IMG/VR virus record: IMGVR_UViG_2663762810_000001
Origin: a virus
Lineage: Duplodnaviria > Heunggongvirae > Uroviricota > Caudoviricetes
Direction: 5' to 3' (one strand)
DNA: 7,792 nucleotides
The notes under the pieces are model-generated. The model did not search any database and was not told where the DNA came from. It saw only the letters and a program-made list of their open reading frames with translations. How positions within the stretch are numbered: position 1 is the stretch's first letter; each line of letters starts with the position of its first letter. The translations under genes were made by a program, and so were the position numbers. This document shows, piece after piece, positions 627 to 7,792 of this stretch.

Positions 627-3600
627 TCAACGAATACTGATGCCGGAAGCAGCCTTTTTGGTCACAATCACCGTACAGTCGGTGATATTACCTGCCCCCT
701 GATTGCCTTTCTGGAAAATCTTAAACTCCAGAGTGACGCTTCCTCTGCCACTCGGCATATCAATAACCGCACTGTAACTACCGGGAATGGCCCCTTTAGT
801 TTCTCTGGATGCGATTAATACGCCGTTTTTGCGAACTTCAAAACCATAACCTGTGTATCGCGTGCCTCCGGGGTTATTTCCGCTCCCCGGATCGTCATAC
901 GCCACACCGTTAAAAATAATGGGCGGAATAATGATTTGACGGTCAAAGTTATGATCATCGCTGATAGTGACTGTAACCGTCCCGTTTGGTGTTTCCGTGT
1001 TACCCCACGTACCAGCCTTCTTCGGGAATGATTTGGATACTGTTTTAACAAAATCGCCTCTGACCTGATTCGCCTCCAGCATGCCCTTAATCGTACAGTT
1101 CTCATTTATCTTGACGTTGTTTAGCGTCCCGGCGTTCGCATTCACACTGCCACTGATATCCGCATTTTTCGCCGTCAGTCGCCCGTCCGGTGTCAGGGAA
1201 AATGCCGGAGGATTACCGCCGCTGGTAATGGTGGGAGCCGTCAGGCGTTTCAGGAACACGTCGTTCATGAATATCTGATCGCCCTGCCCAACAAACATCG
1301 GCTTTGTGTTGCCATTCGCAGGATTAATCATCGCAATCCTGTCTGCCGCCAGCAGCACCTGACTCTGCATGCCGTCAGGGGTGTTCTCAATACCGGCACC
1401 AATACCCGCGATATAAAGGCGTCCGTCCTGCATCTGCTGCAGCTTCACAGCCCACATGCTGTTCAGGTTATTATTTGTATCAACCTGAACCTTCTGTATC
1501 TGCTGGATCGCTGCACTCTGGTCTTCCAGTTTCTTATTGACGGTCTGTGTGATTTCATTGCTGACATCCGTAATGGATGTCCTGATTTCAGCCAGGTCAG
1601 GCGCAAGCTGACCGTTATCAATCTGCGTCCACAGCTCCTGAGCCAGATGGGTTTTCCCTATCTCGCCTTTGAAAAAATCCAGATAGCCGGATGCGTCATC
1701 ACTCGGCTGACCAACAGCCTCCACGAATGCCGATTTGCCAACGGTGTTCACACTGCGAACGTAAAAATAATAATTATGGCCCGGCCTGATATTGATACTG
1801 GCGGCTATCCAGTACAGCGCCGTGCCAAGATAGCGTGCTGTGGTTTCAACCTGCCTGATATCGGTAATCCGCTTTTCCGAGAACCAGAACTCAAACTGTA
1901 CCGTCGGGTCATAAACGGCAAGATGCGGCGTGGCGGTTATCTGAAAATACCCCGGCGTCAGCTCAATCCGCGACGGTGCTACCGGTGCGGCAATCCGGAA
2001 CGATACCGACGCCGGATCGCCCTGCTGTCCCCACGCATTTACCGCCCGGACTGTCAGCGTGTACCGCCCCAGCGCCAGTTGCGTGAAGCGGTATGTGGTT
2101 TCCGTCGTCCGGGCCGTGCTGACCAGCCGCTCACTGCCGTCATCCGCTGCCACGGTCAGGCGAAGCATAAAGCTCACCCCCTTCACCACCTTCGGCGTGT
2201 CCCAGCGCGCCAGCACCTGGTATTCCCCGCTGTCTGCGGTGACTTCTGCGGTCAGGTGCTGTACTGCTGGCGGCGTGACGCCATTCACCGTGCCGCTCTG
2301 GTCGCCGTCAAAGTGCGCCCCGTTATCCACGATGGCCTCTTTTGCCGGTACATGCTGCACGGCGGTGATGGCATACGTGCCGTCGTCGTTCTCACGGATA
2401 CTCACGCAGCGGAACAGGCGCTGGCGCAGCGTCGGCAGCTTCAGTCCCCACACGCTGTATCCGGCAACGCCGTCAGGAACACGGCTCACTTTCACCTTCA
2501 CGCCGTCGGTGACGGACTGGACCTCCACGCTCACCGGATTGCCACTTCCGTCAACCAGGCTTATCAGCGTGGTGCCGGAGGATGGCAGCGTGATTTCACG
2601 GTCGAGCGTCAGCGTCCGGGTCTGGCTGTTCACCGCCAGCACGCGACCACCGGTGCTGATACCGGCATAGTCATCATCGCAGATTTCAATGACATCGCCC
2701 GGTACATGGCGAAGCCCTTCAGCACCCACGCTGAAATCCACGGTCTGCGTCTCCAGCAGTTCCGTTTTAATCAGCCACAGCCCGGCGCGGTGTGCCTGCC
2801 CCCGGCTGGTACAGCCAAAGGCATCCATCTTCGTGACATTACGACCGTAACGGGCAATGGCCTGCGTATCTTCAACAAGCTCTGTCGCCGTCTCCCAGCC
2901 GTTGTTCGGGTCAATCCAGTTCACCTCAACGGCATTATGGCGGTCCTTCAGGGCGCTGAAGCTGTAGCGGAACGGCGCGCCATCATCCGGCATCACCACA
3001 TTACTGCGGTTATAGGTCCACACCTTATCCGACGGTCGGTCCTGCACGAACGTCAGCGTCTGCCCGTTCCATACCGGCATACAGCGCATCGCCGAGCAGA
3101 AATCACTGAGCACATCCCACGCCTTTCGCTGTGTGGTCAGGTACGCATTACAGGCGATGCGCGGCTCCGTGCCGCCAAAGCCGTCCGGCACCGACTGGTC
3201 GCAATACTGGCCGATGACATACAGCGCCCATTTGTCCACATCCGCCGCACCAAGACGTTTCCCCATGCCGTAGCGCGGATGGGTCAGCATATCCCACAGA
3301 CACCATGCCATATTGTTGCTGTATGCCGGTTTAAACGTCCCGTCCCAGATACCGCTGTATTGCCGCGTCTGCGGGTTATAATTTGACGGCACCTGCAGAA
3401 TACGCCCGCGCAGATGATAATTACGGCTCACCTGCTGGCTGCCGAACTGCTCCGAGTCCACCTGCACGCCGACCAGTGCCGTGTTCGGGTAGCACTGTTT
3501 CACATCGATGATTTCAGTGTATGACGACCAGAGCGTTTTGTTCTGCAGCTGGTCTGTGGTGCTGTCCGGCGTCATCCTGCGCATCCGGATGTTGAACGGG

Positions 3601-4124
3601 CGCGGCGGCAGGTTACCCACCACCACCGAGGCCAGATACTGCGAGGTGGTTTTGCCCTTAATGGTGATGTCTTTTTCCGTCACCCAGCCACCATTACGCT
3701 GTATCTGAACCAGCAGGCGGACTTCCGACGGATTCCTGTCCCCCTTTGAGGTGGTTTCCACCAGTGCCTGCACGCCGAAGGTAAAACGCAGTCGGTCAAT
3801 GTTTGCCGACGTGATGGTCCGAGTGATCGGCGTGTCGTATTTCACTTCCGTACCCAGCACCGTCTCGGAGCCGGAGGATTCAAATCCCTCCGGCGGTGTC
3901 TGCTCCTGCTCACCGGCCCGGAACACCACCGTGACGCCGGAGATGTTGGTATTCCCCTCACTGTCCAGCACTGGCGTACTGTTCAGCAGCACGCTTTTTA
4001 ATCCATCCACCGGACCTTCAACCGGCCCTTCGCTGATGGCATCAATCACACTCAGCAGCTGCGTGGATTTCAGGTTGTCCTTCGCTTCGCGCGGGGTATG
4101 CCCCTTACTGCTGCCTTTACCCAT
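627..4124 (-). CDS. J: Tail-tip / host-specificity protein J (central tail fibre), 1165 aa, lambda-like with a divergent C-terminal region
   Basis: ORF-track protein begins [34 protein letters not shown]..., which matches the lambda gpJ N-terminus as I recall it, and similarity continues for about 1000 residues. Minus-strand GGAG lies 8 nt upstream of the ATG at 4124. It follows gene I after a 60-bp gap, the same spacing I recall for lambda. The last ~150 residues (roughly 627..1095) do not match lambda J as I remember it. Confidence 0.95.
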
Positions 4125-4184: not shown

Positions 4185-6035
4185 TCAGCGACCAATCACC
4201 ACAACCTGACCACCATCACCTTCATCTGCTGTGCTGATCTCCTGAGATACCACACGTGATCCCACGCGCATTTCACCGTACAGAACGGGCAGAACATTGC
4301 CCTGGGCAACCATATTATCCAGTGAAGAAAAATAGGTGTTCTGTTTGCCGTTATCCGTTGTCTGTGTGCGGGGGGTTTTGGGTTTAGGGGCCAGCATCTG
4401 TGCAACACCGCCAAGCGTCATACTGGCACCGAGAGAAAACAGCAGATTACTCGCCATAATTCCTACCCCCGGCATCCATATAGCAACCGCCATAACAGCC
4501 GCCCCCAGCACAGCCTGAAACACACCGCCACTTTTGGCTCCTGCCAGACGCGGCACGATATGGATCACAGCACCATTTGCCAGCGGTTCATTAAGACGGG
4601 CTGATAATTCCGTTTCACCTGTATCACGCCCGGCAATGCGTACCTGATACCAGCCGTCGCTCAGCTTCTGACGAAACGCCGGGATCTGCATGGCCAGCGC
4701 CCGGATGGCTTCGGCCCCCGTTTTCACACGCAGATCGATGCGGCGGACAAATCGTTGTAAATCCCCGTAAAGGCAGATGCGTGCCATGCCTGGTGACGCC
4801 AGAGGGAGTGTGTGCGTCGCTGCCATTTGGGAGTCGATACCGGCGGTCAGGTAAGCAACACGATCAGGAACGGGCGCTGAATAATGCTCTTTCCGCTCTG
4901 CCATCACTTCAGCATCCGGACGTTCGCCGATTTTCGCTTCCCACGTCTCACCGAGCGTGGTGTTCACGAAGGTTTTACGTTTTCCCGTATCCCCTTTCGT
5001 CTTCATCCAGTCTTTGACAATCTGCACCCAGGTGGTGAACGGGCTGTACGCTGTCCAGATGTGAAAGGTCACACTGTCAGGCGGTTCAATCTCTTCACCG
5101 GATGACGAAAACCAGAGAATGCCATCACGGGTCCAGATCCCGGTCTTTTCGCAGATATAACGGGCATCAGTGAAGTCCAGCTCCTGCTGACGGATGACGC
5201 AGGCGTTATGCTCGCAGAGATAAAACACGCTGGAGGGGTCATCCGGCGTCCATTTGAGGCCAAACGGCGTCTCTTTATCGCCAAATTTAAGGTACTGCTC
5301 CTCCCCGCAGTGCGGGCAGGCAACATGAAAACGCATAAAATGCGGGGATTCACTGGCTGCACGCTCAATCTGGCATGTGCCTCTCACTTTGGGCGTGGAG
5401 CCACGGATGGACTTTGGCCAGACCGAGCCTTCAATACGCTTATCGCCCAGGAACGTCGGAGAGCCTTCCTGTTCAATATCCTCATCAAAGGCAGCAAGTT
5501 CATCATAACCCGCCACATCCACCGACTTTTCACGGTAGTTTTTTGCCGCTTTACCGCCCAGGCACCAGAAGCCACGACCATTGGAAAAACGCTTCATGGT
5601 GAGCGTGTTATCCCGGTGCTTTTTGCCATACCACGGAGCCAGCGCCAGCAGCGACGGAATATCGCGGATGGTCGGCTCAACGTGGGTTTTCATAAAGTTC
5701 TCGGCATCACCATCCGTCGGCAACCAGATAAGGGTGTTGCGCTGCTTATGCTCTATGAAGTAGGCATAAACACCCAGCAGCATTTTGGAATAACCAACAC
5801 GGGCAGACTTCACCACATTCACCTCGCGGACGTAGTCACTGCCCATCGCATTCATGATGGCCCGCTGAAAGGGCAGTGTTTCCCAGCGCCCTTCCTGGTA
5901 TGCGGATTCTTTCGGGAGATAGTAATTGGCATCCGCCCATTCAACGGCGGTCTGTGGCTCCGGCCGGAACAGTGAGCGAAGCCCGGCGCGGACAAAATGC
6001 CGCAGCCTGTTAACCTGACTGTTCGATATATTCAC
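4185..6035 (-). CDS. A::I: In-frame fusion ORF: terminase large subunit gpA residues 1-403 (A-derived part 4827..6035) joined to a full-length tail assembly protein I (213 aa, I-derived part 4185..4826); probable deletion remnant, likely non-functional as a terminase
   Basis: Residues 1-403 (MNISNSQVNRLRHFVRAGLRSLFRPEPQTAVEWADANYYLPKES...DRVAYLTAGIDSQ) match lambda gpA as I recall it, including the GTG start (complement of cac at 6033..6035) that overlaps the Nu1 3' end. Residue 404 onward (MAATHTLPLASPGMARICLYGDLQRF...SQEISTADEGDGGQVVVIGR) matches lambda gpI from its own Met to its C-terminus. The junction is the minus-strand sequence GGT ATC GAC TCC CAA | ATG GCA GCG (window 4826/4827). Total 616 aa with no internal stop. 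Confidence 0.85.
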   Translation of the reverse strand: MNISNSQVNRLRHFVRAGLRSLFRPEPQTAVEWADANYYLPKESAYQEGRWETLPFQRAIMNAMGSDYVREVNVVKSARVGYSKMLLGVYAYFIEHKQRNTLIWLPTDGDAENFMKTHVEPTIRDIPSLLALAPWYGKKHRDNTLTMKRFSNGRGFWCLGGKAAKNYREKSVDVAGYDELAAFDEDIEQEGSPTFLGDKRIEGSVWPKSIRGSTPKVRGTCQIERAASESPHFMRFHVACPHCGEEQYLKFGDKETPFGLKWTPDDPSSVFYLCEHNACVIRQQELDFTDARYICEKTGIWTRDGILWFSSSGEEIEPPDSVTFHIWTAYSPFTTWVQIVKDWMKTKGDTGKRKTFVNTTLGETWEAKIGERPDAEVMAERKEHYSAPVPDRVAYLTAGIDSQMAATHTLPLASPGMARICLYGDLQRFVRRIDLRVKTGAEAIRALAMQIPAFRQKLSDGWYQVRIAGRDTGETELSARLNEPLANGAVIHIVPRLAGAKSGGVFQAVLGAAVMAVAIWMPGVGIMASNLLFSLGASMTLGGVAQMLAPKPKTPRTQTTDNGKQNTYFSSLDNMVAQGNVLPVLYGEMRVGSRVVSQEISTADEGDGGQVVVIGR

Positions 6036-6555
6036 TCAGCAACCCCGGTATCAGTTCATCCAGCGCGGCTGCTTTGTTCATGGCTTTGATGATATCCCGT
6101 TTCAGGAAATCAACATGTCGGTTTTCCAGTTCCGGAAAACGCCGCTGCACCGACAGGGGGATCCCGTCGAGAATACTGGCAATTTCACCTGCGATCCGCG
6201 ACAGCACGAAAGTACAGAATGCGGTTTCCACCACTTCAGCGGAGTCTCTGGCATTCTTCAGTTCCTGTGCGTCGGCCTGCGCACGCGTAAGTCGATGGCG
6301 TTCGTACTCAATAGTCCCTGGCTGGAGATCTGCCTCGCGGGCCTGCCGCAGTTCTTCAACCTCCCGGCGCAGCTTTTCGTTCTCAATTTCAGCATCCCTT
6401 TCGGCATACCATTTTATAACGGCGGCAGAGTCATAAAGCACCTCATTACCCTTGCCACCGCCTCGCAGAACGGGCATTCCCTGTTCCTGCCAGTTCTGAA
6501 TGGTACGGATACTCGCACCGAAAATGTCAGCCAGCTGCTTTTTGTTGACTTCCAT
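6010..6555 (-). CDS. nu1: Terminase small subunit Nu1 (cosB-binding, wing-helix DNA-binding N-terminus), 181 aa
   Basis: ORF-track protein MEVNKKQLADIFGASIRTIQNWQEQGMPVLRGGGKGNEVLYDSAAVIKWYAERDAEIENEKL...EYIEQSG is essentially lambda gpNu1 over its full length as I recall it. The 3' end overlaps the A start by 26 nt as in lambda. It lies directly downstream of cosB. Confidence 0.95.
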   Translation of the reverse strand: MEVNKKQLADIFGASIRTIQNWQEQGMPVLRGGGKGNEVLYDSAAVIKWYAERDAEIENEKLRREVEELRQAREADLQPGTIEYERHRLTRAQADAQELKNARDSAEVVETAFCTFVLSRIAGEIASILDGIPLSVQRRFPELENRHVDFLKRDIIKAMNKAAALDELIPGLLSEYIEQSG

Positions 6556-6576: not shown

Positions 6577-6775
6577 CAGAGAAAGGAAACGACAGAGGCC
6601 AAAAAGCCCGTTTTCAGCACCTGTCGTTTCCTTTCTTTTTAGGGGGTGTTTTAAATAAAAACATGAAGTTACGGCGAAGAAGAACGGAAACGCCTTAAGC
6701 CGGAAAATTTTCATAAATAGCGAAAACCCGCGAGGTCGCCGCCCCGTAACCTGTCGGATCGCCGGAAAGGACCCG
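6577..6775. other. cos: cos site (cohesive-end packaging site): cosB with Nu1-binding R1, R2, R3 elements and IHF-site region, cosN, and the expected cosQ position
   Basis: Positions 6733..6744 (aggtcgccgccc) are the complement of GGGCGGCGACCT, the 12-nt lambda cohesive end. The adjacent 6745..6757 complement reads ...CCGACAGGTTACG, the lambda right terminus. Three copies of the R-element core GGAAACG sit between cosN and Nu1: R3 about 6680..6695, R2 6621..6635 (inverted), R1 6581..6595. R1 and R2 form a perfect 15-bp inverted repeat (gaaaggaaacgacag / ctgtcgtttcctttc). The AT-rich stretch 6640..6672 corresponds to where IHF site I1 lies in lambda. cosQ is expected about 6760..6775 by position. 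Confidence 0.9.
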
Positions 6776-6780
6776 CAAAA

Positions 6781-6795
6781 TGATAATAATTATCA
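6781..6795. promoter_or_regulatory. Perfect 7-1-7 palindrome TGATAAT-A-ATTATCA, Fur-box-like; function unknown
   Basis: The sequence tgataataattatca at 6781..6795 is a perfect inverted repeat of the form tGATAATnATTATCa, which is one common description of the Fur-box half-site arrangement. It lies about 35 bp on the right-arm side of cosN and about 150 bp upstream of the 64-aa ORF. Confidence 0.3.
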
Positions 6796-6943
6796 TCTGC
6801 ATGTCACAACGTGCATCTACGCAATCAAACCACGTCAAATAATCAATTATGACGCAGATATCGTATTAATTGATCTGCATCAACTTAACGTAAAAACAAC
6901 TTCAGACAATACAAATCAGCGACACTGAATACGGGGCAACCTC

Positions 6944-7138
6944 ATGTCAACGAAGAACAAAACCCGCAGAACAACAACCCGCAACATCCGCTTTCCTAAC
7001 CAAATGATTGAACAAATTAACATCGCTCTTGAGCAAAAAGGGTCTGGGAATTTCTCAGCCTGGGTCATTGAAGCCTGCCGTCGGAGACTAACGTCAGAAA
7101 AGAGAGCATATACATCAATCCAGAGTGATGATGGATGA
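6944..7138 (+). CDS. Hypothetical 64-aa protein with ribbon-helix-helix-like pattern (possible CopG/Arc/MetJ-type DNA-binding protein)
   Basis: ORF-track protein MSTKNKTRRTTTRNIRFPNQMIEQINIALEQKGSGNFSAWVIEACRRRLTSEKRAYTSIQSDDG. A basic N-terminus is followed by a short strand-like segment (RNIRF) and two amphipathic helix-like segments (NQMIEQINIALEQKG / FSAWVIEACRRRL), as in RHH folds. A G-rich weak SD (GGGG) sits 7 nt upstream. It is transcribed in the same direction as bor, opposite to the late operon. I recall an equivalent ORF at the right end of lambda but am not certain it is annotated. Confidence 0.45.
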   Translation: MSTKNKTRRTTTRNIRFPNQMIEQINIALEQKGSGNFSAWVIEACRRRLTSEKRAYTSIQSDDG

Positions 7139-7500: not shown

Positions 7501-7792
7501 ATGAAAAAAATGTTGTTTTCTGCCGCTCTGGCAATGCTTATTACAGGATGTGCTCAACAGACGTTTACTGTTGGAAACAAACCGACAGCAGTAACACCAA
7601 AGGAAACCATCACCCATCACTTCTTCGTTTCGGGAATTGGACAGGAGAAAACTGTTGATGCAGCCAAAATTTGTGGCGGCGCAGAAAATGTTGTTAAAAC
7701 AGAAACCCAGCAAACATTCGTAAATGGATTGCTCGGTTTTATTACTTTAGGCATTTATACTCCGCTGGAAGCGCGTGTGTATTGCTCACAAT
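7501..7792 (+). CDS. bor: Bor lipoprotein (serum-resistance lipoprotein, Iss/Bor family); all 97 codons present, stop codon truncated by the window end
   Basis: ATG at 7501 with AGGA 7 nt upstream. My translation is MKKMLFSAALAMLITGCAQQTFTVGNKPTAVTPKETITHHFFVSGIGQEKTVDAAKICGGAENVVKTETQQTFVNGLLGFITLGIYTPLEARVYCSQ, with a lipobox (LITGC) and near-identity to lambda Bor as I recall it. Absent from the ORF track only because no stop lies inside the window. Position and orientation relative to cos match lambda. Confidence 0.9.
   Translation, partial: MKKMLFSAALAMLITGCAQQTFTVGNKPTAVTPKETITHHFFVSGIGQEKTVDAAKICGGAENVVKTETQQTFVNGLLGFITLGIYTPLEARVYCSQ

Follow-up and report, generated by a model that had tools for sequence, protein, structure and literature searches.

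The palindrome TGATAATAATTATCA, found at positions 6781-6795 of the window (the whole stretch of 7,792 nucleotides analysed here), is a bona fide and already described Fur operator, equal in sequence to the 'nohB/nohD' Fur site of the K-12 prophage DLP12. The main explanation, which is considered quite probable, is that of a high-affinity Fur operator, likely acting by occlusion of a promoter embedded in it, with an output that appears weak and varies from strain to strain. What may be new, as suggested by the comparison of cos sequences, is that many lambda-like phages keep such a box a few bp from cosQ. The value of the result is that of a pointer to a top-ranked Fur operator preceding a phage terminase gene.

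The palindrome and its surroundings

The window is a defective lambdoid prophage, whose + strand corresponds to the minus strand of lambda. Gene J (627-4124, - strand) was placed by the gene order read from the window. It is followed by an ORF located on the same strand (4185-6035; Pfam GpA_ATPase, GpA_nuclease and Lambda_tail_I), in which the ATPase domain and the beginning of the nuclease domain of terminase gpA are joined to the lambda tail assembly protein I. Since gpA runs into gpI within a single ORF, a deletion has removed the head genes along with most of the tail genes, and the prophage is defective; its cos site is probably a relic. The gene for the terminase small subunit Nu1, a homologue of NohA and NohD, follows at 6010-6555 (- strand; PF07471, E = 5e-100). 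The cohesive-end sequence of cosN (6733-6744, - strand), which reads AGGTCGCCGCCC on the + and GGGCGGCGACCT on the - strand, was located by comparison with lambda and DE3, whose annotation includes a 'cos site'. The 7 bp of cosQ (6768-6774, - strand; AGGACCC on the + and GGGTCCT on the - strand), the lambda counterpart of which is 48473-48479, are separated from the palindrome by 6 bp. On the other side of the palindrome, the + strand encodes a 64-aa DUF3950 protein of the YlcI/YnfO family (6944-7138; PF13132, E = 1.8e-20, supported by the RefSeq annotation of homologues) and bor (7501-7792; PF06291, E = 6e-31), which is partial, as the window ends within the gene. Coordinates and Pfam matches therefore bear out the context given in the initial annotation, with the palindrome lying between cosN/cosQ and the 64-aa ORF, and bor beyond. 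The segment from cos to this ORF is found in 4601 of 5426 complete E. coli genomes; in K-12 it is represented by ylcI-nohD in DLP12 and by ynfO-nohA in Qin.

A perfect 7-1-7 palindrome was indeed read at exactly 6781-6795, and the likeness to Fur operators originally noticed amounts to 14/14 matches on the 7-1-7 motif TGATAATnATTATCA and to 16/19 on the classical 19-bp consensus GATAATGATAATCATTATC. When up to 2 mismatches are allowed, the palindrome is the sole match to TGATAATNATTATCA in the window, for a chance expectation of 0.02, and any such match was present in 4 of 200 dinucleotide shuffles of the window. The best 19-mer register (16/19) covers 6776-6794; five more overlapping registers score 13-15 at the palindrome, and elsewhere in the window the highest score is 13. 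A score of 16/19 was attained in 1 of 2000 first-order Markov randomisations of the window. Taken together, the six registers, scoring 13-16/19 with a 6-bp offset, form an extended cluster at 6776-6800 (no strand), where overlapping 6-bp registers are found as in Fur operators; from its layout, the cluster would probably take two or more Fur dimers.

The site, thought to be undescribed when it was first noticed, is known from publications of 1994 to 2007 under the name of nohB/nohA Fur site. The K-12 genome was scanned with an information-theory Fur model by Chen et al. 2007 (PMC2189734), whose Table 4 reports nohB, centred at 579824 (U00096.2), with 25.3 bits in the third row among strong clusters. 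The nohB cluster is made up of 4 overlapping sites within 28 bp (PMC2189734). For nohA, the same study gives a centre at 1634624 with 22.3 bits, together with a 12.6-bit site at 1634630, 6 bp off (PMC2189734). This site was chosen as one located in a promoter region by using the Fur model along with a sigma-70 model, and is reported at '-233' (PMC2189734), a value which equals the 233 bp between the start codon of Nu1 and the centre of the palindrome, located upstream of Nu1 in the window.

The published nohB and nohA coordinates were converted to the current K-12 record, and both fell on the centre base of the palindrome, i.e. position 4102 of the DLP12 locus (L003) and position 2101 of the Qin locus (L006). 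Across 6776-6798, DLP12 and the window have the same sequence, and the scoring with a Fur weight matrix originally proposed is thus already in print, with 25.3 bits for an identical sequence (PMC2189734). The Qin sequence equals that of phage lambda across 116 bases compared around cos; in lambda, the palindrome occupies 48452-48466, 6 bp from cosQ (48473-48479). The gel shift that had been suggested has likewise been published, this Qin/lambda allele being shifted by 150 nM Fur (Chen et al. 2007, PMC2189734). According to the same paper, nohA had been cloned earlier by Vassinova and Kozyrev, through in vivo selection of Fur-binding fragments. Direct-binding evidence is thus provided by the gel shift for the Qin/lambda allele; for the DLP12 allele, which is that of the window, the evidence consists of the prediction and of the 1994 Fur titration paper by Stojiljkovic et al., as cited for nohB by Chen et al. 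2007 (PMC2189734).

Conservation of the box beside cosQ

Lambda-like cos sites were collected by two routes, one starting from Nu1 homologues (one genome per species, plus IMG/VR) and the other from a cosQ-cosN DNA pattern excluding the box; a box was called when at least 11/14 positions of the 7-1-7 motif were matched. In a first pass, 72 of 105 unique cos sequences reached this score and the other 33 scored 8 or less, none being found at 9 or 10; all the boxes but one (10 bp) end 3-7 bp from cosQ. By requiring a longer flank, 116 unique sequences were obtained, which were grouped into 47 left-flank families on the basis of unrelated DNA farther from cos. In this check of conservation across lambdoid prophages, which the initial annotation had proposed, the box is present in 29 of the 47 families, which are not to be taken as phylogenetically independent. 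The position relative to cosQ and cosN is fixed where the box is present, since in 28 of the 29 families the gap to cosQ is 3-7 bp (mostly 5 or 6 bp), in a sample partly retrieved by a fixed cosQ/cosN pattern. The remaining family, with a 10-bp gap, is the Klebsiella locus L038. The background for such matches is 3.4e-4 per position, and box scores in the 47 families are bimodal (11-14 vs 5-8). No box is found in 18 of the 47 families, and 31 of the 186 cos sites that precede a Nu1-family gene are likewise devoid of it; the presence in all cos sites expected of a packaging sub-site was therefore not observed.

Boxes located 3-7 bp from cosQ are carried by lambda, phi80 and N15, as well as by prophages from at least 8 enterobacterial genera; the association of box and cosQ thus extends over lambdoid phages of very different make-up. 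Citrobacter, Kluyvera, Kosakonia, Klebsiella, Buttiauxella, Dryocola and Phytobacter are among the genera concerned. In phi80 a perfect box (46088-46102) falls within the feature 'cosQ; aka R4 region' (46084-46138), and in N15 the box CGATAACTATTATCG (46313-46327) overlaps the stop codon of gene 59. Information content drops to about zero directly past the box on the side away from cos, and the centre base is free to be C or T when read on the top strand of lambda, which corresponds to G or A on the + strand here (A in the window). Conservation within the box is inflated by the 11/14 threshold used for the call; among columns not subjected to this selection, T-13, G-12, A-10, A-9 and T+8 to T+10 are conserved in the 29 families, as expected from a second Fur register 6 bp away. 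In the lambda-type family, variants spare the arms and are concentrated in three places, namely the centre base, the far flank and the gap separating the box from cosQ. The comparison of cos variants also revealed that the box occurs independently of both the DUF3950 ORF and the FNR box described below. A literature search joining the Fur box with the cos site or the terminase gave nothing relevant and, within the collection searched, no paper linking the nohA/nohB Fur site with cosQ.

Several other features were observed in the collected loci. In the Buttiauxella locus L034, two perfect TGATAATCATTATCA boxes about 35 bp apart are located within 70 bp of cosQ, and the Citrobacter locus L030 carries an extra Fur-like repeat, ATGATAATCAATATTGAAT...AATAATCATTAAG, beyond the cosQ-adjacent box, on the side away from cos. 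Box-less cos sites fall into a few recurrent types (L168, L170, L205, L222, L272; also L094, L110, L124, L137). In one of them, a GC hairpin followed by a T-run, resembling an intrinsic terminator, ends 2-3 bp from cosQ; another shares the motif ATTRCGAA..ACCAGAAC. In some loci of the terminator type, the first ORF past cosN is not Nu1-like, as for the small helix-turn-helix protein in L205; such loci may be phage satellites, and a search in this direction gave, for the downstream protein, weak helix-turn-helix matches only. Finally, assemblies assigned to non-enteric organisms (Kitasatospora, Paenibacillus, Shewanella, Bradyrhizobium, Psychrobacter and others) contain a Nu1 96-100% identical to that of the window, on contigs either short or about 48.4-48.5 kb long (e.g. 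L010-L019, L024-L026), which are almost certainly contamination by lambda control DNA.

Fur occupancy, transcription and rival explanations

Fur ChIP-exo and RNA-seq of fur mutants are available for nine strains (Gao et al. 2023, PMC10164565). The ChIP check suggested by the initial annotation gave a divided answer, with a peak on the homologous box of CFT073 and none at either copy of MG1655. In CFT073, the iron-replete peak P53 (1424699-1424711; PMC10164565) maps onto AAACGAGAATAAT of the homologous box. This cos-adjacent site is a degenerate box, TGATAATTATTCTCG, matching 12/14 positions and located 5 bp from the cosQ of a different lambdoid prophage, whose terminase small subunit belongs to another type and whose DNA and genes away from cos are unrelated to those of the window. 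In the fur mutant of this strain, C_RS26755, C_RS07340 and C_RS07370 change by +2.9, +2.3 and +2.1 log2, respectively (PMC10164565); the sign of the fold change refers to the fur mutant vs the wild type, as confirmed with fepA and fhuA. All three genes belong to the CFT073-specific Fur regulon, and C_RS07370 is a gene of the terminase/head operon (PMC10164565).

In K-12, the MG1655 ChIP-exo list contains no peak at the DLP12 or Qin copy (PMC10164565), and in the W3110 list the interval 562538-594929, within which the DLP12 cos falls, is free of peaks, while no peak is attributed to nohD, ynfO or ydfO. For BL21(DE3), a search of the ChIP-exo data by coordinates gave nothing at the DLP12-like copy. 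Read mapping would be an unlikely cause of the missing K-12 peaks, as the sequences of the two copies differ enough around the box. RNA-seq of the MG1655 fur mutant shows ybcW and nohD unchanged and borD at -1.2 log2, and no derepression of nohD or nohQ was found in the MG1655 or W3110 fur mutants (PMC10164565); borD is down by 1.0-1.2 log2 in the mutants of both K-12 strains, according to the published RNA-seq. The W3110 fur mutant also shows decreases of 2-5 log2, at low counts, for ybcV, ybcW, ylcI, nohD, ynfO and ydfO, and a 16-fold decrease for appY; MG1655 does not show any such decreases. Fur can thus occupy the element in cells, and in K-12, under the tested conditions, there is either no occupancy or no measurable output. 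Silencing of these AT-rich prophage regions by H-NS would be a plausible reason for the silence in K-12.

A promoter scan detected, on the - strand, a sigma-70 promoter-like site (6780-6807; 10/12 matches) directed toward cosQ, cosN and Nu1. It consists of a -35 element, GTGACA (6807-6802), and a -10 element, TATCAT (6785-6780), separated by a 16-nt spacer; hexamers spaced within the 16-18 bp range thus overlap the operator, with the -10 lying in an arm of the palindrome. As the -10 of this cos-directed site is inside the palindrome, Fur would most likely act by occluding a promoter at the cos-proximal edge of the prophage. According to the proposed mechanism, iron-loaded Fur dimers would sit on the 7-1-7 core and on the overlapping register 6 bp farther from cosQ, covering the -10 hexamer TATCAT of a predicted promoter that runs through cosQ, cosN and cosB to Nu1. 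Transcripts from this predicted promoter would begin in or near cosQ and cross cos into Nu1. The regulatory output appears to be weak and to depend on strain and context. Other cos families do not share the -35 element, and a promoter scan of CFT073 found no promoter across the box. Promoter occlusion does not explain the tight and widespread linkage of the box to cosQ.

Beyond the Fur box as seen from cos, the 64-aa ORF is preceded by a perfect FNR box, TTGATCTGCATCAA (6870-6883, no strand, 0 mismatches), a separate site whose centre lies 67 bp before the ATG. A -10-like hexamer, GACAAT (6905-6910, + strand), which was read by eye from the sequence and stays under the threshold of the promoter scan, would put this FNR box near -41.5, in a class II geometry, for the 64-aa ORF. 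This FNR site is already published for the Qin copy: Myers et al. 2013 report the motif at 1634706 (score 16.68) within a ChIP-seq peak assigned to nohA/ynfO, and describe the driven gene as 'indistinguishable' between the two. A dedicated FNR-dependent promoter, about 80-130 bp from the Fur box, is the more likely source of transcription of the 64-aa ORF. PdhR sites are also found near ybcV/ybcW and ynfO/ydfO; they are unrelated to the palindrome.

These data bear on the model of the initial annotation, in which Fur represses a transcript starting close to the box and running away from cos, through the 64-aa ORF and toward bor, placing this cargo under iron control. The model finds its counterpart in CFT073, where loss of fur raises the expression of two genes, assigned to the transcription unit TU53 at P53 on the side away from cos, by a factor of 5 to 8 (PMC10164565), and where ORFs on the strand leading away from cos start about 30-100 bp past the box, the match of these ORFs to the two old locus tags being presumed. 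In addition, TATCAT also occurs on the + strand at 6791-6796, the palindrome being symmetrical, and Myers et al. proposed an activation of nohA/ynfO by FNR that is hidden by Fur repression. In K-12, however, neither a ChIP-exo peak nor derepression is found: ybcW is unchanged in the MG1655 fur mutant, ylcI, ynfO, ybcW and ybcV are down in that of W3110, and the decrease of borD in both strains is contrary to derepression. In the window, no + strand promoter was found at the box in the scan, where the best -35 candidates match 3/6 positions. With a promoter built on the perfect FNR box of the ORF itself, the Fur box would lie near -130 relative to the likely start, too far for simple occlusion; moreover, the Fur box is kept in 49 unique cos variants lacking both the 64-aa ORF and the FNR box. 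A literature search for ylcI or ynfO together with Fur gave nothing relevant, and these genes do not appear in the main text of Beauchene et al. 2015. Given the putative FNR promoter, and as the scan yielded none on the + strand at the box, a control of the ORF and of bor by iron is the weaker reading in the window, and is on the whole rather unlikely, although iron control away from cos can hold in other prophages, as the CFT073 data indicate. A second alternative raised at the outset, namely that the palindrome is merely Fur-box-like and serves as the operator of another dimeric protein, for which the DUF3950 protein, FNR and IHF were considered here, is extremely improbable, in view of the published Fur binding and of the independence of the box from the DUF3950 ORF. 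The neighbouring ORF looks ribbon-helix-helix-like by eye, but the same 49 variants have the box and not the DUF3950 ORF, which rules out its product as the binder; the sequence of this protein gave no significant match when compared with solved structures. An FNR ChIP-seq summit has been reported at 1634625, i.e. at the centre of the box, in 25-bp bins; the refined peak (1634702) and the motif at 1634706 fall, however, on the separate perfect FNR box, 82 bp off, and FNR is thereby ruled out as well. A scan for the IHF consensus near the palindrome found no match with up to one mismatch. Conservation beyond the palindrome, furthermore, tracks the 6-bp register of Fur.

Two other explanations were considered. 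The box might be an accessory packaging element, in which Fur bound 3-7 bp before cosQ slows or pauses the terminase so that cosQ and cosN are recognised, or else modulates termination. The strong positional linkage described above, both as number of families and against the background, is in line with this idea, as are the presence of the box in lambda, phi80 and N15, with the phi80 record placing it inside the cosQ/R4 feature, and the arrival of packaging at cosQ from the side of the box. Mutants with slower translocation are known to suppress cosQ mutations. On the other hand, the box is not required, as shown by the families and the Nu1-followed cos sites which lack it, and its gap to cosQ varies over 4 bp, leaving the helical phase unfixed. 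Saturation mutagenesis by Wieczorek and Feiss, in 2001, is said to delimit cosQ to 7 bp, and purified terminase and IHF package DNA without Fur. An accessory packaging role is considered distinctly improbable. Even less probable is a decoy function, by which hundreds of copies of the box on replicating phage DNA would titrate Fur and derepress host iron uptake during lytic growth. The site ranks among the strongest predicted clusters of K-12, relatives such as L034 and L030 carry two boxes, and a decoy role would agree with the recovery of the site from a cloned fragment through in vivo Fur capture (Vassinova and Kozyrev, as reported in PMC2189734) and with the 1994 Fur titration paper cited there for nohB; a decoy, however, has no need of a position adjacent to cosQ. 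Accessory packaging, regulation of cargo genes and Fur titration each have a low individual probability. More generally, it is rather unlikely that the box is a conserved and selected accessory element of the lambda-like cos module, linking iron status or a bound host protein to packaging or to Fur titration. Were the linkage functional, it would bring a host metal regulator into phage packaging, into the control of prophage cargo or into a remodelling of iron uptake in the lytic phase.

Comparison with known Fur sites and cos regions

The closest known counterpart of the high-affinity Fur operator proposed here is the K-12 DLP12 nohB/nohD site, which shares with the window the 15-mer, the sequence across 6776-6798, the distance of 6 bp from cosQ and that of 233 bp upstream of the Nu1 homologue. 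Two substitutions just beyond the core, at 6775 and 6799, distinguish the two sites, and nothing material differs. The two prophages are less alike than their sites: compared with DLP12, the window has the gpA::gpI fusion and a full J gene, and lacks ybcV and ybcW. The K-12 Qin nohA site, and the lambda sequence at 48452-48466, correspond to the same element in the same position; this allele differs in the centre base, which is G on the strand of the window (A in the window), and in a few flanking bases.

The 7-bp cosQ (GGGTCCT) is invariant among the lambda-like phages compared in PMC4669245. The box immediately adjoins this cosQ/R4 region of lambda-like phages and is co-inherited with it; unlike cosQ, it is found in 29 of the 47 families and is not a defining part of cos. 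The classical Fur boxes (fepA-entD, fhuA, cirA) share with the site their match to the consensus, the overlapping 6-bp registers and the overlap with a -10 hexamer, and the classical 19-bp consensus can itself be read as overlapping 7-1-7 motifs. Unlike these iron-uptake boxes, the site in the window has no adjacent iron-related gene and lies inside a phage packaging region, and its K-12 copies show no robust Fur-dependent expression. The palindrome, which holds nothing new as a Fur site, is among the strongest and longest-known non-iron Fur sites of E. coli.
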